25,010 nucleotides of DNA, from positions 1-25,010 of IMG/VR virus record IMGVR_UViG_3300025313_000614; one strand, written 5' to 3'. The DNA comes from a virus (taxonomy: Duplodnaviria; Caudoviricetes). Below are positions 1,557-12,648 of the stretch, piece after piece (within the stretch, counting starts at the first letter, position 1; each line of letters opens with the position of its first letter). The translations under genes were made by a program, and so were the position numbers. The notes under the pieces were generated by a model that saw only the letters and a list, made by a program, of their open reading frames with translations, was not told where the DNA came from and did no database searches.

Positions 1557-2401
1557 TGGGCAGTCGACAATTACGGCAGGGCACACGGCTCGGCGCGCAG
1601 AGTCAGGATATGGCGGCGCAGAACGATCACAATGACGTGCGGCGTGTCCTGTATATCATCGATCCAGAAGCGCCAGTCAGCGTGGACCCCAACCAAATCA
1701 CCGTTGATTCGGCTATCCAGGTCCGGATCGGAGGGCTGAACGAGGAGCGCGTCGAGCGGCTGATGCAAGTGCTTCTCAATGGCGGCGCGTTTGAAGATCC
1801 GATTGATCTATTCCAGGATGGCCTGATCCTGGCCGACGGCCTACACCGGCGCGAAGCATATCTGCGCGCGTTAGCCGATCCTGGCGTTGTATCCGGCGAG
1901 ATCGCACTTGCCCCTCTGATGGCGAACTTTCATCCTGGCGGATTTGACGAAGCGCTCGAATTTGCTGAAGAGGCCAACCTTCGGCATGGCGAGCCACTGA
2001 CCACGGATGATCTCAAGAACTTGCTCTATCGGCGGTTGGAGCGGGGCTATTATGGAGTCGACGTTTCCAATCGCCAGATCGCTCAAACTCTCGGCGTAGC
2101 GCATACGACGATTGGGCGCTGGCGTCTGGAATGGCAACACCGCACTGGTGCGCACGCACCAGTCAGAGAACATCGCGAGAAAAAAATCGTGACAAAATCG
2201 GGTCAAACGATGCGCGTGGACGGCATCGCGGCGGCTAATAAAAAGCGCGCCAAACAGGGGCCGACTGCGACGCAGATCAAGCGGGCGGTCGTCAAACACC
2301 TGGAAGACGCGGCGGGGGGCCTGGAGCGGCTGGGCATGTCGGACCATGCGGACGGGCTGCTCGATTACGCGCGTGAGCGGCGCGAGGAGTGGGGACTGTG
2401 A
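1556..2401 (+). CDS. ParB-like protein (ParB N-terminal domain plus HTH)
   Basis: TGATG coupling to parA; LADGLHRREA arginine patch, ANLRHGEPLT, HTH SNRQIAQTLGVAHTTIGRWR. Confidence 0.85.
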   Translation: MGSRQLRQGTRLGAQSQDMAAQNDHNDVRRVLYIIDPEAPVSVDPNQITVDSAIQVRIGGLNEERVERLMQVLLNGGAFEDPIDLFQDGLILADGLHRREAYLRALADPGVVSGEIALAPLMANFHPGGFDEALEFAEEANLRHGEPLTTDDLKNLLYRRLERGYYGVDVSNRQIAQTLGVAHTTIGRWRLEWQHRTGAHAPVREHREKKIVTKSGQTMRVDGIAAANKKRAKQGPTATQIKRAVVKHLEDAAGGLERLGMSDHADGLLDYARERREEWGL

Positions 2402-3063
2402 GCGGCGGCTATCGGTTCAAGCGCGAACACGCCCTGCCCAGGGCTGAAGCGTTGGTCGAGGCGCTGCGTCCGGCCTGCGCGCAGATCGAGATCGCGGGCA
2501 GTCTCCGGCGCGGCAAGGCGACGGTGGGGGACATCGAGATCGTCGCCCGGCCCCTGGTCGAGGAGCGCCCGGTCGCCGGGCAGTTGGGGCTGTTCGGTGG
2601 CGACCAACCGGCGACCGTCGAGCGAGTGAGCCTGCTCGACCCGCTCCTGGAGCGCCTGGCGGCGGTGGGGGAGATCCACCGGGATCGTCCCTATACCCAC
2701 GACAAGGGCGTGTGGGGCGAGAAATACAAGCGGTTCTGGTTAGCGCTCAACGACCTCGGCGAGTACGTCCAGGTCGACCTGTTCCTGGTTACGCCGCCTG
2801 CGCAGTGGGGACCGATCTTCACCATCCGCACCGGGCCGGGCGAGTTCGGCCAGGCGCTGATGCGCCACATCAACGCTCATACGCTGTGGCGGCAGGACGA
2901 CGGGCGGCTGGTTCACCGGGGCACGGGCAAGGAAGCCCACACGCCCACCGAGCGGGCGTATTTCGAGGTGTTGGGTGTGCCCTGGATCGAGCCGGCAGAT
3001 CGCAGCGCCGAGATGCTGAGCAGGGCGTTGCGCGAAAATGCGAAACGAGGGACAAATGGTTAA
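2398..3063 (+). CDS. Minimal family X DNA polymerase / Pol-beta-like nucleotidyltransferase
   Basis: GTGA overlap with upstream stop and GAGGAG RBS; IAGSLRRGKATVGDIEIV, QVDLF, RTGP, TERAYFEVLGVPWIEP are PolX palm/thumb motifs. Confidence 0.88.
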   Translation: MSGGYRFKREHALPRAEALVEALRPACAQIEIAGSLRRGKATVGDIEIVARPLVEERPVAGQLGLFGGDQPATVERVSLLDPLLERLAAVGEIHRDRPYTHDKGVWGEKYKRFWLALNDLGEYVQVDLFLVTPPAQWGPIFTIRTGPGEFGQALMRHINAHTLWRQDDGRLVHRGTGKEAHTPTERAYFEVLGVPWIEPADRSAEMLSRALRENAKRGTNG

Positions 3064-3289: not shown

Positions 3290-3343
3290 TCGCCCTGGCG
3301 TGTATCAGCACCCAGGGCAGCCATGCCTATAGGGAGGCACAGC

Positions 3344-4045
3344 ATGTCCAATGATACCACAGAACGCAATACGGCGGTTGTTCAGGCGTTGATTGATGGC
3401 GCGACGATGTACGACGTTGCTGCTCAGTTCAGGATGCGTGTTGCTCAAATTCGGCTCATTCTCTATGACTGGTATGAGCATCCTCAGTCGCCCAAAATGC
3501 CCGATCCTGATGACATCTGGCACTTGCCGCTTGAGGACCATGCCTTCCGTCTCTATCGACAGGCGGGCATTAAAAGCGTAGCGCAGTTGATTGAGTTTCT
3601 GGAAACCGGAACACTCCCCAGCGGACAGATCGCCCTCAATCGCTTAGGCAAACAGGAGCGCCAACGGACGATTCAGATGCTTCAGGAGCGAGGCCATGCG
3701 GTTAATCCAGAAGTTAAGCCCATTCTATACGAGTTTCTACCCGATGAAACATGGCAGGAATGTTTAGCCTATTGGGGGAATGTCTGTGCGATCTGTGGCA
3801 CAGCGCCCACGCCGAATAACCGACTGGTGCAAGATCACTGGATACCGCATTTTTCCGATCTGTTCCCTGGCTCAGAACCCACCAACATCGTGCCCCTGTG
3901 TCTCATGTGCAATAGCCACAAGAGAGATAGTGAGCCGTTTCATTGGTTGGTTAAGGAACTTGGACATCGGAGGGCAATCTACAAAATGGCTGACATCTCG
4001 GCTTACTTCAAGATGTGGTTTGAACGGCTGGAGAGTAGGGGATGA
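3344..4045 (+). CDS. HNH endonuclease with N-terminal HTH and RNA polymerase alpha-CTD-like HhH region
   Basis: GGGAGG RBS before ATG 3344; CAIC..QDHWIP..NIVPLCLMCNSHK HNH/zinc motif; LPLEDHAFRLYRQAGIKSVAQL..RLGKQ resembles alpha-CTD. Confidence 0.8.
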   Translation: MSNDTTERNTAVVQALIDGATMYDVAAQFRMRVAQIRLILYDWYEHPQSPKMPDPDDIWHLPLEDHAFRLYRQAGIKSVAQLIEFLETGTLPSGQIALNRLGKQERQRTIQMLQERGHAVNPEVKPILYEFLPDETWQECLAYWGNVCAICGTAPTPNNRLVQDHWIPHFSDLFPGSEPTNIVPLCLMCNSHKRDSEPFHWLVKELGHRRAIYKMADISAYFKMWFERLESRG

Positions 4046-5394: not shown

Positions 5395-5628
5395 GTGGAC
5401 GCTTCTCTTCCCGCAACGATAGGCCCCTACCGCAACCGCATCATCGGCTTGCGGGTCATGCCCGTGGGCGCGCTGCTCGACAATCCGCGCAACTGGCGGC
5501 GGCATCCCGACGCGCAGAAAAGCGCGCTGGATGCGGTCATGCGCTCACTGAGTCAGGGAAATTCAATCGGGCGAATTTGCCATGCAATCGCCGGGCTGCA
5601 TCGTCGTATGCTTCAGCGGCAGCTATAG
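5395..5628 (+). pseudogene. Truncated ParB-like N-terminal fragment (as in phage ParB-methyltransferase genes), cut by the HNH-AP2 insert
   Basis: AGGAG RBS plus GTG; YRNRIIG..LLDNPRNWRRHPDAQKSALDAVM resembles a ParB-N start; the resemblance ends at ~5540, where the antisense HNH gene ends. Confidence 0.6.
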
Positions 5629-6040
5629 CGGTTGGGAAATAGCCAAGATAATGACGAATGCCATCAGCTTTAATCTCGGCAGACCAGCGAAACCGCAGCC
5701 CTTTGGTCCAACGATTGTATCGAACGCCTTTGTATCCCGATTGGTTGTCCGAACGCCTATGTTGGTTTTGGAGGTTTTTGGCGTGCGACGTTATGCGAAT
5801 GTTCTGGCGGCGATTGTCCAGTTGATCGCCATTGATGTGATCAACCACTTCGCCCGGTTGGAGCGCGCGGCCAAGCAACCGTGCGGCTATCGTGCGGTGC
5901 AGGTACTCGTGCGATCCTTTGTAGGGTTTACGCGCCGCATAGCCGCCAGTGTGGAAGTACCAACTCGTCTTCGCCAGCGCCGCATCGCAGTCGTCAAAGC
6001 GGGCAAATTTCCCTTTGGTGAGGGGAATCCTGATACACAT
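5537..6040 (-). CDS. HNH endonuclease with C-terminal AP2 DNA-binding domain
   Basis: AAGGAG RBS before ATG 6040; IPLTKGKFA, LHR, VDHINGDQLDNRRQNIR (HNH_3), SGYKGV..WSAEI..YLGYF..AAEAYDDAARRLHGKFARLNFP (AP2). Confidence 0.93.
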   Translation of the reverse strand: MCIRIPLTKGKFARFDDCDAALAKTSWYFHTGGYAARKPYKGSHEYLHRTIAARLLGRALQPGEVVDHINGDQLDNRRQNIRITSHAKNLQNQHRRSDNQSGYKGVRYNRWTKGLRFRWSAEIKADGIRHYLGYFPTAIAAAEAYDDAARRLHGKFARLNFPDSVSA

Positions 6041-6143
6041 GGGGTCTCTCCTTACTGGCCTTACTGTCGGGGTGTGGAGCGCCGGGTAAGGCTCCGGTTT
6101 CATGCGGGTAGCTATTCCGCACTAGCTCCACTCAGGAATTATA
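6041..6143 (-). promoter_or_regulatory. Promoter plus three-way-junction leader RNA, copy 1 (upstream of HNH-AP2)
   Basis: TATAAT at 6143-6138; stems 6074-6080/6125-6131, 6103-6107/6117-6121, 6082-6085/6094-6097; loop CCUUAC matches GUAAGG at 6064-6059 and 6055-6050. Confidence 0.75.
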
Positions 6144-6209
6144 TCCTGTTTCGCGGGGGACGCAAAGTTCGCCTGCTCGAGTCGTCGCCGGTGACCGAGG
6201 GCGCGTGAT

Positions 6210-6914
6210 GTGGCCGACGCGAACACCGTCCAAGCGCTGCTCGACCAGCCGCTCGATCCGGCGGCGTGGGAGACCCTAGCGCGGCGCGACGGCGAGACCG
6301 CCAAAGCGCACGCGGCCTTCCTGGAGTACGTCCGGATGGGCCCGGGCCGCAGCCTGCGCAAGCTCCACGCGCGGTACGTGGACTGGCGACGGACTGGCGA
6401 CGGACTGGCGACAGAAAAGCCGCCGACGACGCGCCTGCGGACGCTGATGGAGTGGTCGTCCAGGTTCGAGTGGCAGGCGCGGTTGGAGGCCTACGCCGAG
6501 GAGCGGGACCGGGCGGCGATAGCGGAATGGGAAGCGCGGCGGCAGGCACTGCGCGAGATCGATTTTCAGACCGGCGACGAGCTGCGCGACCTGGCGGCCC
6601 GTATTTTGGCCGAGACGCCGCAGTTCCTGAAGACGACGCGGCGGCTGATCAAAGGTCGAGACGGCGCGACGGACCGGGAGATCATCACGGTCGGCATCGA
6701 CATCGACGCGATGCTGAAGGCGCTGAAGCTGGCGAGCGACCTGCAGCGCGCAGCGGCGGGGCTGCCGGCGGCGGCGATTGAGGTGAGGCATGACCACCGA
6801 CTCGATACTGACCAGTATCAGCGCGCGCTTGAATCACTCGCTGCTGCCCTCGGAACAAGCCTACCTGAGGCGGGCGCTGACGGGGACGGCGATCTGGACG
6901 CCGCAGAGCGCTAA
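6210..6914 (+). CDS. Putative terminase small subunit
   Basis: Directly upstream of TerL; GETAKAHAAFLEY..MGPGRSL..EWSSRFEWQARLEAY HTH-type pattern typical of genes at this position. Confidence 0.7.
   Translation: MADANTVQALLDQPLDPAAWETLARRDGETAKAHAAFLEYVRMGPGRSLRKLHARYVDWRRTGDGLATEKPPTTRLRTLMEWSSRFEWQARLEAYAEERDRAAIAEWEARRQALREIDFQTGDELRDLAARILAETPQFLKTTRRLIKGRDGATDREIITVGIDIDAMLKALKLASDLQRAAAGLPAAAIEVRHDHRLDTDQYQRALESLAAALGTSLPEAGADGDGDLDAAER
6380..6412 (+). repeat. Perfect tandem repeat (GGACTGGCGAC)x3 inside terS
   Basis: Units at 6380-6390, 6391-6401, 6402-6412. Confidence 0.95.
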
Positions 6915-8292
6915 GCAGTGGCAGGCCCTGCTCAGCCGCGCGGACGAACTGTACTACGGCGGCGCGGCGGGCGGCGGGAAGACGGATCTGGGTCTGGGCA
7001 TGGCCTTCGAATGCCACCAACGCGCCATTTTTTTCCGGCGCGAGTACACGCAGCTGACGGACGTGGTTGACCGGGGCAACGACATCGCCGCGCCGTACCA
7101 GGTGAGTTTCAACCACCAGCGACGGCGCTGGGAATTTGGCGGGCGGTTCGTCGAGCTGGGCGCGATAGATCACCCGCGGGACTTGAAGAAGTACCAGGGC
7201 CGCCCGCGCGACCTGTACGTGTTCGACGAGGTGACCTATTTCCTGCGCGAGTGGGTGCGCTTCATCACCGCCTGGCGGCGCAGTAGCGATCCCACCCAGC
7301 GCACGCGGGTCCTGCTGCTGGGCAACCCGCCCCTGTCGCCCGAAGGGGAATGGATCATCCAGGAATTCGCGCCCTGGCTGGACGATCAGCATCCGAATCC
7401 GGCGCCGCCGGGCGAGCTGCGCTGGTTTGCCGTGCTGGACGATGAGACCGTTGAGGTCGGAGGGCCAGAACCCATCACGCATAAAGGCGACACGATCCGT
7501 CCCATCTCGCGCACCTTCATCCCGGCCTATCTGGGCGATAACCCGTATTACCGGGACACGGATTACCGGACGGTGCTCCAGAACCTGCCGGGCGTGCTGC
7601 CCGACATTCTGCTCGACGGCAAATTCAACGTGCGGGCCGAGGACGATCTCTGGCAGGCGATCCCGACCGCCTGGGTCGAGGCGGCGCAGGACCGCTACCG
7701 CGCAGGCCAACGCCCGGACGTGGCGCTGCGCGCCGTCGGGCTGGACGTATCGCGCGGCGGGGAAGACGAGACGGTGGCCGCCAAGCTCTATCACGAATGG
7801 TTTGAGCTGCACAGCTGGCCGGGCAAGGCGATCCCGGACGGCCCGGCGGCGGCGGACCACGCGTTGAATGCGTGTCTGGACGATGCGCCCGCGCCGTTTT
7901 TCGTGGACGTGATCGGCTATGGGGCGTCGGCGTATGACAGTCTCAAAGGGCGAGACGGCGTGACGGCGTACCCGGTCAACGTGGGCGAGGGCAGCCAGGG
8001 GATGGACAAAACCGGCAAGTTCCCATTTTTCAACCTGCGGGCGGAAGTCGTCTGGCGCTTTCGGGAAGCCCTGGATCCGCAGAGCGACCATGCGATGGCC
8101 CTGCCCCCGGACCGGCAGGTCAAGGTCGATCTGTGCGCGCCGCGCTTCAAGATCGGCAAGAGCGGCATTCAGATCGAGGCCAAAGAGGATGTGAAAGCGC
8201 GCATTGGCCGCTCCCCGGATAAAGGGGATGCGATTTTGCTGGCGTGGTACGGGGCGCAGGGCTATGGGCGCGCCTCCGTCGAGTTCGTGTGA
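6790..8292 (+). CDS. terL: Terminase large subunit
   Basis: GAGGTGAGG RBS; Walker A YGGAAGGGKT, Walker B YVFDE, GNP coupling motif, nuclease motifs GLDVSRGGEDET and RSPDKGDA. Confidence 0.95.
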   Translation: MTTDSILTSISARLNHSLLPSEQAYLRRALTGTAIWTPQSAKQWQALLSRADELYYGGAAGGGKTDLGLGMAFECHQRAIFFRREYTQLTDVVDRGNDIAAPYQVSFNHQRRRWEFGGRFVELGAIDHPRDLKKYQGRPRDLYVFDEVTYFLREWVRFITAWRRSSDPTQRTRVLLLGNPPLSPEGEWIIQEFAPWLDDQHPNPAPPGELRWFAVLDDETVEVGGPEPITHKGDTIRPISRTFIPAYLGDNPYYRDTDYRTVLQNLPGVLPDILLDGKFNVRAEDDLWQAIPTAWVEAAQDRYRAGQRPDVALRAVGLDVSRGGEDETVAAKLYHEWFELHSWPGKAIPDGPAAADHALNACLDDAPAPFFVDVIGYGASAYDSLKGRDGVTAYPVNVGEGSQGMDKTGKFPFFNLRAEVVWRFREALDPQSDHAMALPPDRQVKVDLCAPRFKIGKSGIQIEAKEDVKARIGRSPDKGDAILLAWYGAQGYGRASVEFV

Positions 8293-8300
8293 GGTGAGCA

Positions 8301-8783
8301 ATGATCATCGCAAGCATCCGCATTACGGGCTATCGCGGCCCCCAAACCAACACCCTGTATCTGCCCCCCGGTGAGTATACGGTGGGGGATTTCGACATCG
8401 CGGCGCATACGGTGCCGGAGGCCCTGGCGCGGTATCTCGTCGACACCGGGCAGGTGACGGCGTATGCGGTCCAGGCAGAGGAGCCGCCCCCCGGTGAGAC
8501 GGGTCAGGAACCGCTGGTTGAGTCTGCGCTTGAAGAACCGACGGCAGACGCCCCGGACTCTGGCGAGGAGATCGCCATCACAGGCGAGGCGACGATGGCC
8601 TTAGAAACGCCCGATCCGTGGCAGCCGCTGCCAGTCCTGGATGAGGCGGCCCGGCAGGACGCCCTCGCGGAACTGGAAGCGATGACGGTCGACGAGCTGC
8701 GCGATCTGGCGGCACGCCAGGGCGTGGAGCTGCCCGTCTATCGTCTCAAGAAAGCGGACCTGATCGCCCTGCTGATGCCGTAA
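8301..8783 (+). CDS. Acidic protein with C-terminal Rho-N/HeH-like helical motif
   Basis: GAGGTGAG RBS; LEAMTVDELRDLAARQGV..LKKADLIALL. Confidence 0.75.
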   Translation: MIIASIRITGYRGPQTNTLYLPPGEYTVGDFDIAAHTVPEALARYLVDTGQVTAYAVQAEEPPPGETGQEPLVESALEEPTADAPDSGEEIAITGEATMALETPDPWQPLPVLDEAARQDALAELEAMTVDELRDLAARQGVELPVYRLKKADLIALLMP

Positions 8784-8795
8784 ACGAGGCGTTTG

Positions 8796-11700
8796 ATGGC
8801 TGCTGTAGTATCAGACCGCACGCGCGTGCCCCTGAGTCAGGGCGCGGCGCTGCTCCAACGCTGGGATCGCGAGTACCAGGCCGCCAAGCGCGCGCCGAGC
8901 GTGATCTGGCCCGCCGATATGTATGGCTGGTATGGCGAACCGCCGCCGGTCGAAGTCACGGCGACGCCGATCCATTACCGCACCAGCGAGGCGGTCAATG
9001 CGGCGGTCAAGGAATTCGCCAACCGGATCGCGTCGACGGCGCTGCTCCTTTACAAACACACCTCCACGGAGGGCGAGCGTGAGGAAGTCAAGGCGCACCC
9101 GGCCCTGACGCTGCTGCGCAACCCCAATCCGTTTCTGCGGCGCTGGGATTTGCTGTGGCACACCGTCGCGGACCTGAAACTGGCGGGGAATGCCTACTGG
9201 TTCCTGGCCGGACCACACTCTGGCGCGCCGGTGGAAATCTGGCGCTGCGCGCCGCAGATGACGCGCATCGTGCGCAGTACGCGCGAGTACATTGGGGGCT
9301 ACGTGACGGAGATCGACAGCCGGCTGATTCCGCTCCGGCGCGAGGAAGTGATCCACTTTCGCGCGCCTAACCCGGTGCTGGTCGACACGCTCTATGGCCT
9401 GGGGGACCTGGCGGTCGCGGCGCTGGCCGCGCAGACCGGGCGCGAGATGGCCGAGTGGAACCGCAAGATGTTCGCCCGGGATTTTGCGGTGCCGGCGGGC
9501 GTGGTGAACATCGAAACGAATATGTCGGATTCCGACTACGAGCGGATGAAGGCGGAATGGCGCACGTCCTACGGCGGCAAAGAACGCCGGACGGCCTTTC
9601 TGCGCGGCGGCAAGGTGCAATTTCAGCCCATCGGCCTCTCGCAGAAGGACGTGGATTTTCTGGAAGGGGCCAAGTGGGAGGCCGAGAAAATCTACCGGGT
9701 GTTCGGCACCTACCATCTGCTGCCCGCCGAGTTCGCCGATGACCGCAAGGTCAACGAGCGCCAGTTCCTGGAGAACCACGCCTGGCCCTTGCTGAGCTAT
9801 GTGGCCGAAACGCTGACCGACGAGTATTTCAGCTTCTGGGGGCCACGCGATGGCGCGGGGTTGTTGGAAGCGGCGTTTGAGGACATCCGGCCCCGCGAGC
9901 GCGCGCTCGATCTGGAAGAGGAACGCGAAGAGGCGAAGGGCATCACGCTGAACGAATGGCGCGCCGCGCGCGGCAAAGATCCGCTGGACGGCGGCGACGA
10001 CGTGCTGTTCGTGCACGTCCAGGCGGGCGACAAGGTGAAGTTCGAGGTGGACGCGCTGCCCCCGCCGCCCGAACCGCCCGCGCCCCCGCCGGTCGAAGCG
10101 CCGCCTGATGAGCCGCCGCCACCCCCGGAGGCACAGGATGCCCAGGAGAATGCCGAGGAGCGTGAGAGCGCGGGCGATGAGGGGGGCGACGACGTGGGCG
10201 AGGTGGCGGACAAGAGCGCCGTGCATCGCGAGTTGGCGGCCTGGGAGCGGTTCGCGCTGCGGCGGGTGGGACAGCCCCTAGAGCGCACCTTTAAAACTGA
10301 AACCATCCCGCCGTTTCTGGCGGACGTGGCGCGCGCGGCACTCACCGACTGTCAGGATGGGCAGGCGATTAAGACCGTCTTTGCGCGCCTGCACGATTTG
10401 GCTGAGGGCCGCTGGCCGGGCGCGAAATCGAGTTACGGCCCGCCGTCCGGCACGGTCGTGCTGACACTGAGCGACGTCGAAGACATCCTGCTGGTCCAGC
10501 AGGTGGCGCAGCGCAGTATGGCCGCCGATGCCCCGGCGCGCTGGACGCCGCGCGAGCAGCTGCACGTGACCATGATCGACGCGCCGCTGGTGGACGAGCC
10601 AACCTTCCGCCAGATCTTCCAGGAGACGGTCGGATTTGCGGCGCTCGACCTGCGCGCGCTGCGCGTGACGACCTTCGAGGGCGACGGCGAGGCCGTGCCC
10701 ATCGTGGCGCTGGTGGACCCGACCGACGCGCTGCGGGCGCTGCACGAGCTGATCTGGGCCGGGTTTGCGGTGCGCGGCATCGCCGTCTCGGAGTACAGCC
10801 AACCCGATCTCTGGACGCCGCACATTACCCTGGGCTACGTCGAGCGGGCCTACCGGGACACGATGGGTCTGATGCCCGACCTGGCGCTGGAATTCGGCTG
10901 CCGCGCCGACACGCTGGCCTTTACGCGGGGCGAGTATGAGACCATCCATGCCCGCGCGGGGGGGGTGGCAATGGTGGCCTTGCCAGAGTCAACGCCCGAA
11001 CCGGAGTCGATGAAGGCGATCCAGGCGACCCGTCTGGACTTCGAGAGTGAGTTCGAGACGCTGCTGGCGGCAGGTCGCGAGGCCCAGATTGACCGGCGCG
11101 AGTGGGCGTCGCGGACGCGCACCCTGCTGCGCAAATACGGCGAGAAAGCCTACCGCGACGGCCTGGCGGATGGGGGGGTCACCTATGGCGATGACGAGCC
11201 GCTGGCCCCGGAGGATCGCTCAGCGCTGGGAGGCCTGCTCACCACGCAAAGCCAGTACGTGACCGAGTTAGGGCGGGTGCTGTTCCGCTCCGAGACCGGC
11301 GTCAGTGAGGGCCAAGCCGCCGTCAAGCCGGGGATGTGGTTCAACAAGAGCGTGCTGCCGCTGTACCAGGCAGGCCGGCTGAGCGCCGATAAGAACGGCA
11401 TGTATCTGTGGGTGCTGAACCCGCTCAAGCAGAACTGCCGCAGCTGCCACACCGCGTCCGGCCAGGTTCACCGCCTGGGCGACTGGCACCGGCGCAAAAT
11501 CGTGCCCAAGGCGGACACGCTGATCTGCAAAGGCTTCGCCTGTGGCTGCAATTTACTGCGGGCCGAAGGGCGCGCTGTGGGGCGGCTGGACAGCGTGCCG
11601 CTCCACGCGGGCAAGGCGGAACACGAGGAAGGGACGCCGATGGTCAGGGAGTGGCCGGAGGGCTTTCCGGCAGACATCAAAGCCGAACTGACGCGCGTCT

Positions 11701-11930
11701 TCGGGCGGCGTATTCTGGACCTGACTGCCGCGCCGCGCGAGGCCGACGGTCCGGCGCACTATGTGATGACCCTGCGCGAGGACGCGGGGTATTACGCCAA
11801 ACTGACGGCGGAGAACGTTCAGACGGGATTGTCGATGATCGACCCGCGATTGACCCTGATGGGCAGTGAGATCACCGGCGAGACCGATTTGCAGGTGATA
11901 TTTGCGGTGGAGGTGGATGATGCCGCCTAG
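8796..11930 (+). CDS. Portal protein fused to a 2H phosphoesterase and a MuF/gp7-like head morphogenesis domain
   Basis: HK97-type portal motifs (HPALTLLRNPNP, LAGNAYW, EVIHFR, YGLG); Pro-rich linker; HVT 10563-10571 and HIT 10821-10829; W..NCRSC..C..CGC Cys cluster near 11400-11550. Confidence 0.88.
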   Translation: MAAVVSDRTRVPLSQGAALLQRWDREYQAAKRAPSVIWPADMYGWYGEPPPVEVTATPIHYRTSEAVNAAVKEFANRIASTALLLYKHTSTEGEREEVKAHPALTLLRNPNPFLRRWDLLWHTVADLKLAGNAYWFLAGPHSGAPVEIWRCAPQMTRIVRSTREYIGGYVTEIDSRLIPLRREEVIHFRAPNPVLVDTLYGLGDLAVAALAAQTGREMAEWNRKMFARDFAVPAGVVNIETNMSDSDYERMKAEWRTSYGGKERRTAFLRGGKVQFQPIGLSQKDVDFLEGAKWEAEKIYRVFGTYHLLPAEFADDRKVNERQFLENHAWPLLSYVAETLTDEYFSFWGPRDGAGLLEAAFEDIRPRERALDLEEEREEAKGITLNEWRAARGKDPLDGGDDVLFVHVQAGDKVKFEVDALPPPPEPPAPPPVEAPPDEPPPPPEAQDAQENAEERESAGDEGGDDVGEVADKSAVHRELAAWERFALRRVGQPLERTFKTETIPPFLADVARAALTDCQDGQAIKTVFARLHDLAEGRWPGAKSSYGPPSGTVVLTLSDVEDILLVQQVAQRSMAADAPARWTPREQLHVTMIDAPLVDEPTFRQIFQETVGFAALDLRALRVTTFEGDGEAVPIVALVDPTDALRALHELIWAGFAVRGIAVSEYSQPDLWTPHITLGYVERAYRDTMGLMPDLALEFGCRADTLAFTRGEYETIHARAGGVAMVALPESTPEPESMKAIQATRLDFESEFETLLAAGREAQIDRREWASRTRTLLRKYGEKAYRDGLADGGVTYGDDEPLAPEDRSALGGLLTTQSQYVTELGRVLFRSETGVSEGQAAVKPGMWFNKSVLPLYQAGRLSADKNGMYLWVLNPLKQNCRSCHTASGQVHRLGDWHRRKIVPKADTLICKGFACGCNLLRAEGRAVGRLDSVPLHAGKAEHEEGTPMVREWPEGFPADIKAELTRVFGRRILDLTAAPREADGPAHYVMTLREDAGYYAKLTAENVQTGLSMIDPRLTLMGSEITGETDLQVIFAVEVDDAA

Positions 11931-11937
11931 TGGCTGG

Positions 11938-12546
11938 CTATTCCTCAACCGCTTTGTCTGGAACGCCTGGGAGGAGCTTCATATTATGCCAAGCCTCAAA
12001 AAGCTCTTCAATGGTAATCAGTCCTTTATTAGCCAGGCGATGATGATTGGGGCAGAGAATAATAAGGTTATCGAATTTATTCGATCCGCCTGTATTCGTT
12101 TGAATTATGTGATGGACATCGCAACTCGTTTCTGCCCAGCCGCATATAGCACAACAATCTATAAAGCGACGTTTCATGGATTGACGGGCAGAAGGGGAAG
12201 ACCGCTCGCGTCCTTTTTTCCAGCGTGCCCAGGGAGAAGCAGCCTTGAATGCGCACTCACGGCTACAAAACGACTGATCATGCTCCGGCCATTTGGTCAC
12301 ACGCTGAAATTCCGTTCCGCACTGGGCACAGATATATGTCTTGGGTTTTCGTTTGGCCTGTGCCGACATTTGACGTCCCGCTTCGAAAAATTGGGGGGTA
12401 GGCTTGATCGGATTTTGCCGTCTGTATTCGCGCCAACATTCACGGTTGCAGAAAACGAGGTTTTGATCCGGATTAAGTTTTCGCGGTTCTCGGTGAACCT
12501 CTTTTCCGCAATTGGCACAAGTGAAATCAATCGTATGGCGTGGCAC
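11938..12546 (-). CDS. HNH endonuclease with two N-terminal Cys4 zinc-finger repeats
   Basis: AGGAG RBS before GTG 12546; CANC..FCNREC and CAQC..FCSREC; CAICG..DVHHI..NLIILCPNHH. Confidence 0.9.
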   Translation of the reverse strand: MPRHTIDFTCANCGKEVHREPRKLNPDQNLVFCNRECWREYRRQNPIKPTPQFFEAGRQMSAQAKRKPKTYICAQCGTEFQRVTKWPEHDQSFCSRECAFKAASPWARWKKGRERSSPSARQSMKRRFIDCCAICGWAETSCDVHHIIQTNTGGSNKFDNLIILCPNHHRLANKGLITIEELFEAWHNMKLLPGVPDKAVEE

Positions 12547-12648
12547 TTGTTTTTCTCCTACAGATCCTACTTGCGAGGGTGTGGGCAAGCGGTAGGACAC
12601 GCGGTTCATGCGGTTCATGAGGCCGCACTAGCCCACACCTTGATTATA
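12547..12648 (-). promoter_or_regulatory. Promoter plus three-way-junction leader RNA, copy 2 (upstream of zinc-finger HNH)
   Basis: TATAAT at 12648-12643; stems 12578-12586/12631-12639, 12609-12613/12623-12627, 12589-12591/12600-12602; loop UCCUAC matches GUAGGA at 12570-12565 and 12561-12556. Confidence 0.75.

Follow-up and report, generated by a model that had tools for sequence, protein, structure and literature searches.

A putative divergent form of the int-alpA RNA ahead of two phage HNH endonuclease genes, a candidate dimeric repressor of translation

The window analysed here is the whole 25,010-nucleotide (nt) stretch of the Caudoviricetes record IMGVR_UViG_3300025313_000614. Its minus strand contains two short cassettes, each directly ahead of an antisense HNH endonuclease gene. 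Judged by covariation, both belong to a real RNA family with a conserved three-way junction formed by the helices P1, P2 and P3. It was also shown by comparison of homologues that the loop of P3 has two complementary sites in tandem, T1 and T2, the second of which is located at the Shine-Dalgarno position. Pairing between the P3 loop and T2 would very probably block the 30S subunit and repress translation. We are further inclined to believe, from the self-complementarity of the P2 loops, that two leaders pair through these loops, either by kissing or by strand swap. The combined reading, in which the cassette is a promoter plus a ~60-nt leader that, acting as a dimer, restricts translation of the downstream gene, has in our judgement an even chance of being right.

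The two cassettes

An earlier model-made reading of the letters, the initial annotation, had described one layout shared by both cassettes, and every position that it gave for this layout and its motifs was confirmed in the sequence. The features are listed below, for each copy in the order of transcription.

6160..6165, minus strand: weak -35-like hexamer TTGCGT of copy 1, 16-nt spacer (from the sequence)
6138..6143, minus strand: -10 box TATAAT of copy 1; the inferred +1 coincides with the first base of P1, at about 6132-6131
6074..6131, minus strand: three-way junction of copy 1 (minimum free energy fold, 52.7 bits with model R1, covariation)
6109..6114, minus strand: self-complementary UAGCUA in the P2 loop of copy 1 (9 nt, 2+6+1), the proposed dimer loop
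6086..6093, minus strand: P3 address loop AGCCUUAC of copy 1, including CCUUAC at 6091-6086
6058..6064, minus strand: target T1 of copy 1, GUAAGGC (loop complementarity, duplex energy)
6050..6055, minus strand: target T2 of copy 1, GUAAGG; its end is 9 nt upstream of the ATG, and it shares bases with the GGAG at 6051-6048
5537..6040, minus strand (antisense): HNH-AP2 endonuclease gene, 167 amino acids (aa), adjoining terS, PHROG 99
12643..12648, minus strand: -10 box TATAAT of copy 2, just upstream of the start of a divergent head-protein gene (12675)
12581..12636, minus strand: three-way junction of copy 2 (57.8 bits with R1, covariation; the minimum free energy fold alone differs)
12615..12620, minus strand: self-complementary UCAUGA in the P2 loop of copy 2 (9 nt, 2+6+1; from the sequence)
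12592..12599, minus strand: P3 address loop UGUCCUAC of copy 2, including UCCUAC at 12597-12592
12564..12570, minus strand: target T1 of copy 2, GUAGGAU (loop complementarity, duplex energy)
12556..12561, minus strand: target T2 of copy 2, GUAGGA; its end is 9 nt upstream of the GTG, and it takes in most of the GGAG at 12558-12555
11938..12546, minus strand (antisense): zinc-finger HNH endonuclease gene, located between the portal and head genes and encoding 202 aa when read from the GTG, PHROG 1271

In copy 1, P1 starts 6 nt after TATAAT and pairs GUGGAGC (6131-6125) with GCUCCAC (6080-6074). It is followed by UA, P2 (6122-6117/6107-6102), GAAA and P3 (6097-6094/6085-6082). The distance from TATAAT is also 6 nt in copy 2, where P1 pairs GUGGGC (12636-12631) with GCCCAC (12586-12581), is extendable by three pairs, and is followed by UA, P2 (12628-12623/12613-12608), GAACC and P3 (12602-12600/12591-12589). 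The full P3 loop is 8 nt long in both copies, and seven of the eight nucleotides pair with T1. The linkers after P1 are ACCCCGACA and CUCGCAA, neither of them U-rich.

The core pattern common to both cassettes occurs twice in the window and in none of 100 shuffles, and the fold stability of the two cores corresponds to z = -3.49 and -3.41. The lowest-energy fold of copy 1 is the three-way junction, while copy 2 alone prefers an alternative fold, so that its junction is assigned from the homologues. Neither cassette promoter was called in a sigma-70 promoter scan of the window, presumably because the -35 boxes fall under the threshold, and no minus-strand terminator was called near either cassette.

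The two downstream proteins have unrelated architectures, as the initial annotation had claimed, and no significant mutual similarity. The HNH-AP2 protein matches Pfam HNH_3 above the cut-off and AP2 below it, and the zinc-finger protein matches Pfam HNH and HNH_2.

Homologues and family assignment

Homologues were collected with patterns that left both loops and both targets unspecified, in five viral scans and one metagenome scan. From the matches 36 further members were chosen by eye, a choice that the visible targets may have biased. A partly independent set was obtained by fetching 80 loci through their DUF1376 protein alone, which gave 57 model matches and 13 new loci of the long-P2 form described below. 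Five loci with a weak or no R1 score (L122, L142, L314, L324, L004) were excluded from the members.

The refitted alignment has 52 rows, 51 of them distinct, and being model-fitted it leans towards the model. All three helices covary in the 51 distinct homologues and 90.4% of the cells are paired; there are 124 helix cells with a double change, compared with 37 after shuffling and at most 54 when the helices are slid. Model R1, whose training set included both window copies, scores the next best place in the window at 11.3 bits. With a pattern that did not contain the -10 box, TATAAT or TATACT was found 9-11 nt before the GC closing the 5' strand of P1 in seven of eight members outside the window. 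Because the box has this fixed position, the RNA probably starts at P1. The fold of the homologues and the position of the box both support the earlier proposal of a structured leader RNA made from its own promoter.

An Rfam scan of the whole window gave five chance-level matches, none of them relevant, and the int-alpA family surfaced only via the relatives. This family (RF02996) is typed 'Gene; sRNA' and has a gathering threshold of 35.8 bits. Relatives with a short P2, upstream of the same DUF1376 genes, pass this cut-off at 4 of the 20 loci scanned. Long-P2 relatives obtain 24.9-34.9 bits at eight loci, and two further ones (L439, L028) are unlisted. The window copies fall short of the cut-off: copy 1 reaches 13.3 bits with a shifted alignment, and copy 2 is not listed for int-alpA at E<=10. 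There is continuity at the sequence level, as R1 reaches three loci (L443, L456 and L458, at 19-26 bits) that themselves pass the int-alpA cut-off. Since the short-P2 relatives pass the cut-off and the window copies do not, we regard the latter as a probable divergent long-P2 form of int-alpA, not as members by score. The RNA family is thus not a new one, although the initial annotation had treated it as novel.

The likeness to int-alpA includes the order P1-UA-P2-GAA-P3-P1' with conserved CUAG and GAA, the pyrimidine-rich P3 loop, and a context of phage and mobile-element genes. The P2 helix differs: int-alpA has 3-4 base pairs and a loop of 4-5 nt (4 and 5 in the model), whereas the long-P2 form has 6 base pairs and a 9-10-nt loop that holds a 6-nt palindrome. 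The 3' tail of the int-alpA model includes T1 but neither T2 nor any loop pairing. In contrast to int-alpA, the window copies have no U-rich stretch after P1.

One short-P2 pattern has at least 120 matches in viral contigs, and in a sample of 151 genomes from one class, 12 match RF02996. The long-P2 form escapes the current Rfam model, and the int-alpA family is therefore wider than annotated. The family is reportedly among the candidates described by Weinberg et al. in 2017. No literature on the function of the int-alpA RNA was found in a search that left subscription papers mostly outside its scope. The name does not occur in the main text of that paper, PMC5737381, whose supplement may bear on novelty and may deal with pairing to the ribosome-binding site.

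The D12-methyl RNA (RF02950) was considered and rejected. It obtains 11.9 bits over a single hairpin, P2 of copy 1, when at least 57 bits are needed, and its true members are two open hairpins without a closing P1 or a UA/GAA junction. D12-methyl RNAs are found near tRNA-like matches in several phage contigs (L607, L608, L612 and L628, at about 600-660), where a 9-nt loop contains the imperfectly self-complementary UUGCUA.

The P3 loop and its two targets

The long-P2 members could be parsed in 50 distinct cases out of the 52 rows, with one parse failure and one duplicate, and 39 of these have two good sites, with 35 distinct loops. The loops score 29.7 against their own downstream region and 20.8 against those of the other members, and the best of 20,000 permutations reaches 24.3. 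For 17 of the 35 the own region ranks first. When the weaker site is taken alone, the values are 13.2 for the own region, 9.5 for the others and 11.0 for the best permutation. Among the 99 short-P2 members (five parse failures, 91 with two sites, 55 loops) the corresponding scores are 29.2, 20.2 and 22.5. The permutation test takes account of the purine richness that ribosome-binding regions have in general. The change of loop and targets together, which the initial annotation had noted between the two copies, is hence seen throughout the homologues, where the own regions beat all permutations.

The distance between the end of T2 and the start codon has a median of 7 nt in the long-P2 form (n=37) and of 8 nt in the short-P2 form (n=82), in agreement with the earlier placement of the second target at the Shine-Dalgarno. 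T2 is the weaker site in 25 of 39 long-P2 and 58 of 91 short-P2 members. For the two window cassettes, the predicted duplexes of loop and target have energies of -9.3 and -8.3 kcal/mol for the cognate pairs and of -3.6 and -2.3 kcal/mol for the crossed ones, which fits the limited cross-talk that had been suggested.

The spacing between T1 and T2 follows the form of P2. Its median is 10 nt in the long-P2 form and 13 nt in the short-P2 form, and the distance from P1 to T1 is 11 in both. The difference holds among genes of the DUF1376 type alone (7 versus 11 loops, P=0.011, kinship ignored). Such a shift is expected if a partner docked at P2 supplies the second loop.

The self-complementary P2 loop

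The self-complementarity of the P2 loop had escaped the initial annotation. Of 38 members, 37 carry a Watson-Crick palindrome of 4 nt or longer in this loop, and in 28 it extends to 6 nt or more. Counted by distinct loops, the numbers are 19 and 11 out of 20, compared with means of 7.9 and 1.6 and maxima of 16 and 7 when the loops are shuffled. Seven different central tetramers are found among the palindromes. When the palindrome columns are treated as pairs there are 47 double-change cells, against 14 in shuffles and at most 13 when slid, although two of five covariation measures are not above shuffles. A divergent second copy in L028, weakly picked up by R1, has the palindrome UCAUGA as well.

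For the int-alpA hits in genomes, 18 of 19 P2 loops could be parsed: GACG occurs in seven, UAGCU in four, UGAUCA in two, and UAGCUA and AGCGC in one each. Loops with GACG are the dimer loops of Moloney murine sarcoma virus (MoMuSV) and loops with a 6-nt palindrome those of HIV-1 (PMC7357161). A 6-nt palindrome cannot pair inside its own loop, and a second molecule is therefore its simplest partner.

Dimer formation was estimated by cofolding, which describes a strand swap. In this estimate the two window hairpins gain -9.9 and -5.6 kcal/mol as homodimers and nothing as a heterodimer, and 33 of 40 hairpins gain more than shuffles of their own loop (-8.1 versus -5.4). Three of the four pairs of co-resident copies have different palindromes (the window, L032/L285 and L028; in L330 they are the same), too few to count for much. 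At one locus (L336:1100-1219) the address loop and its targets are those of window copy 1 and the palindrome is that of copy 2, a mixture that suggests that the palindrome and address codes reassort.

Two other readings of the P2 loop were rejected. A T-loop is out since the conserved pattern is U-N4-A around a palindromic centre, and pairing with the start codon fits the CAUG members only.

Proposed mechanism and alternatives

In a lone transcript, the P3 loop would mostly be held by T1, which is nearer and usually stronger, and T2 would stay open for the ribosome. With rising amounts of leader RNA, a partner bound by way of P2 would bring a second P3 loop to T2 and translation would be shut. 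This partner could be either a second full transcript or a shortened copy, trimmed or terminated. The outcome would be a protein-free negative feedback on RNA concentration, akin to a dimeric repressor on a tandem operator, and the two codes, palindrome and address loop, would keep co-resident cassettes apart.

Several observations weigh against this dimer model. Shuffled P2 loops also gain on cofolding (-5.4), seven of 40 hairpins are no better than their shuffles, and the calculation represents a strand swap, not kissing. The bare duplexes of UUAUAA and UAAUUA have only -0.6 and -0.4 kcal/mol, and many P2 loops here have no flanking purines, which are required at the HIV dimer initiation site (DIS) (PMC7357161). 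Non-palindromic loops exist, both among the int-alpA genome hits (GACA, CACG and UCGCU, 3 of 18) and in L343, L427 and L477 (UUGCUC). The window copies carry no U-tract that could release a short partner RNA. As for the targets, T2 is weak in 11 of 50 long-P2 members, some of them misparsed, T1 is just as similar to a Shine-Dalgarno as T2 in the long-P2 members, and the T1-T2 spacing is no tighter than the position of T1.

The strongest competitor, which we judge unlikely but serious, is a monomeric switch with two states, in which a single P3 loop forms a pseudoknot either with T1 as a decoy (on) or with T2 (off). The state would be set by co-transcriptional folding and the P2 loop would bind something else, for example a protein or a nuclease. 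Such a switch explains both targets, the position of T2 and a T1 at least as strong as T2 without a second molecule, and it is compatible with the non-palindromic P2 loops. However, neither the seven palindromic tetramers and their compensatory changes nor the replacement of these tetramers by GACG is accounted for, and a 6-nt palindrome cannot pair within its own loop. The switch also gives no reason for a T1-T2 spacing that tracks the form of P2, a shift not obviously expected of a monomer.

The U-rich linker that follows P1 in 21 of 39 long-P2 and 37 of 91 short-P2 members fits a small RNA acting in trans, in the manner of the P4 CI RNA, which pairs with two sites and causes termination (PMC4825925). 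Here a cut or terminated core would pair with nascent T1 and T2 and lead to premature termination instead of a ribosome block. We find this improbable, as both targets are downstream and T2 tracks the start codon, whereas the sites of CI flank it on both sides; in addition, no terminator was called near the cassettes and the linkers of the window are not U-rich.

Still less probable is an activation like that of IsrK, whose short RNA turns on its own read-through mRNA in trans (PMC4825925). The lone leader would then be off, with its own loop on T2, and a second copy would free the ribosome-binding site. This fits the members with T2 stronger than T1 (9 of 39 long-P2 and 21 of 91 short-P2), but T1 is the closer site and usually no weaker than T2, and positive feedback on a nuclease or a replication initiator would presumably be costly. 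Finally, a DNA-level element (an operator, cruciform or recombination site) could use P2 with its palindrome as an imperfect inverted repeat and would suit the reading frame swaps right behind the cassette, but it is the least credible of all, given the common G-U pairs, whose orientation with respect to the strands is kept (16 of 51 at the first pair of P2), the start at the predicted +1, a loop-target complement that tracks the Shine-Dalgarno and the freely variable centre of the palindrome.

If the dimer model is extended to the whole int-alpA family, a step that we take with some doubt, the family would be a widespread kind of repressor that needs no protein and senses the number of its own copies. 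Its retrovirus-style kissing loops (a 6-nt palindrome or GACG) would be interchangeable, the two address loops of the dimer would occupy a tandem pair of sites at the ribosome-binding region, the cassettes would be orthogonal through two independent codes, and replication initiators and homing nucleases would be under its control.

Genes behind the cassette

The cassette leads nucleases often but not only, as phage replication genes (DUF1376, helix-turn-helix (HTH)) are also found behind it. According to Pfam, the 27 downstream proteins analysed comprise six HNH (one below the cut-off), two endonuclease VII, three NUMOD3 or GIY-YIG, five DUF1376, one HTH_36 and one weak methyltransferase, and nine have no match or a faint one.

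The open reading frame (ORF) behind the cassette is exchanged between relatives. Cassette 2 is retained up to and including T2 in G002, a phage of 91-96% identity, and the HNH behind it is a different one of about 30% identity; in L026 the HNH found in this place is ~30% identical. In contigs matched to L528 the cassette is likewise kept and the ORF changed. Four of 24 sequencing runs were compared with L528; three gave contigs and the raw-read run 0 reads, so that no RNA ends came from them. A third HNH/endonuclease VII-like gene of the window (3323-4042, plus strand), of lower GC, has no cassette. The mixed downstream genes, the swaps and this cassette-free HNH together point to a general expression cassette with exchanged ORFs. 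The initial annotation, in which the element travels with selfish nucleases, was right that it leads HNH genes and too narrow in tying it to them.

The cassette of L528 (640-780) has a short P2, belongs to an enterobacterial-type prophage and lies just after the stop codon of the upstream gene. Different contigs have differing ORFs behind it, and partial matches are found in 44 of 5426 E. coli genomes. In three loci (L426, L444 and L472) a different shared leader, apparently structured, replaces the cassette ahead of the same gene family. This leader is located ~110 nt upstream of the DUF1376 start (locus position ~690-800) and has no Rfam match at E<=3.

The phage and its relatives

The window covers 25 kb of a GC-rich phage, with terS, terL, portal, protease-capsid and tail genes all on the plus strand, and the two HNH genes of the cassettes are minus-strand inserts of lower GC than the surrounding phage DNA. 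A 44-kb viral record matches 7.6 kb of the window at 99.97% identity and contains the same two cassettes and none beyond those.

With R1, no member was found in 151 genomes from the phylum of a Chloroflexi-titled record (34 candidates scored per genome), nor in five further single genomes, and a pattern scan of a genome collection gave no member among the matches listed, after filtering. Searches with blastn against cultured phages gave no match for one window cassette and L341 as queries. A short-P2 query gave partial matches in 43 records.

Phage G002 has neither cassette 1 nor its HNH-AP2 gene nor the window-type terS; a ~630-bp block takes their place. The terS of the window (6210-6914) is wholly unlike that of G002. 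The portal ORF (8793-11930, 1045 aa) has a 2'-5' RNA ligase-like domain at residues 585-687, and its last ~520 bp are unlike those of G002, where the ORF is 929 aa long. A PolX/DNA polymerase beta-like protein is encoded at 2389-3063 on the plus strand and adjoins parA and a ParB-like or HTH gene. A 33-bp stretch is shared at 88% identity by terS (6569-6601) and the gene after terL (8684-8716).

Comparison with known systems

The analysis gives int-alpA, a catalogued orphan RNA, a specific mechanism that is cheap to test. If it is true, no repressor protein is needed for selfish nucleases and replication initiators to keep their own dose low, and the cassettes form a naturally occurring set of short translation switches that are orthogonal to one another.

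The P1 C4 RNA is a small structured leader RNA of the transcript under its control and pairs with two sites. P4 CI and IsrK are, like the cassettes, small structured leader RNAs that pair with two sites (PMC4825925). The targets of CI are upstream and downstream and it acts by termination, while IsrK activates (PMC4825925); in the cassettes both targets are downstream in tandem, one of them on the Shine-Dalgarno. The analogy with CI and C4 drawn by the initial annotation holds in style but not in the arrangement of the targets, and no Rfam match to C4, c4-2 or isrK is listed for the window or for either copy.

RNA structure also restrains the translation of other homing endonucleases, namely T4 I-TevI, I-TevII, I-TevIII and segB and Aeh1 mobE (PMC2988022). 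These are simple hairpins that sequester the ribosome-binding site, a block lifted by a late promoter whose transcripts lack the 5' arm (PMC2988022), whereas the cassettes would use a portable junction RNA that begins at +1 and pairs loop to target.

The P2 loop resembles the HIV-1 DIS and the loops of MoMuSV and Moloney murine leukaemia virus (MoMuLV), which have a 6-nt palindrome or a GACG tetraloop and are capable of forming kissing homodimers (PMC7357161). Compared with the retroviral dimer loops, the P2 palindromes are richer in A/U and are often flanked by bases other than purines; we claim no homology. The retroviral loops serve genome packaging; the proposed role in the cassettes is the control of translation. 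Functional RNA oligomers are rarely seen in nature, according to a review of RNA dimers (PMC7357161), and for this reason a bacterial homodimeric regulator of translation would be unusual.

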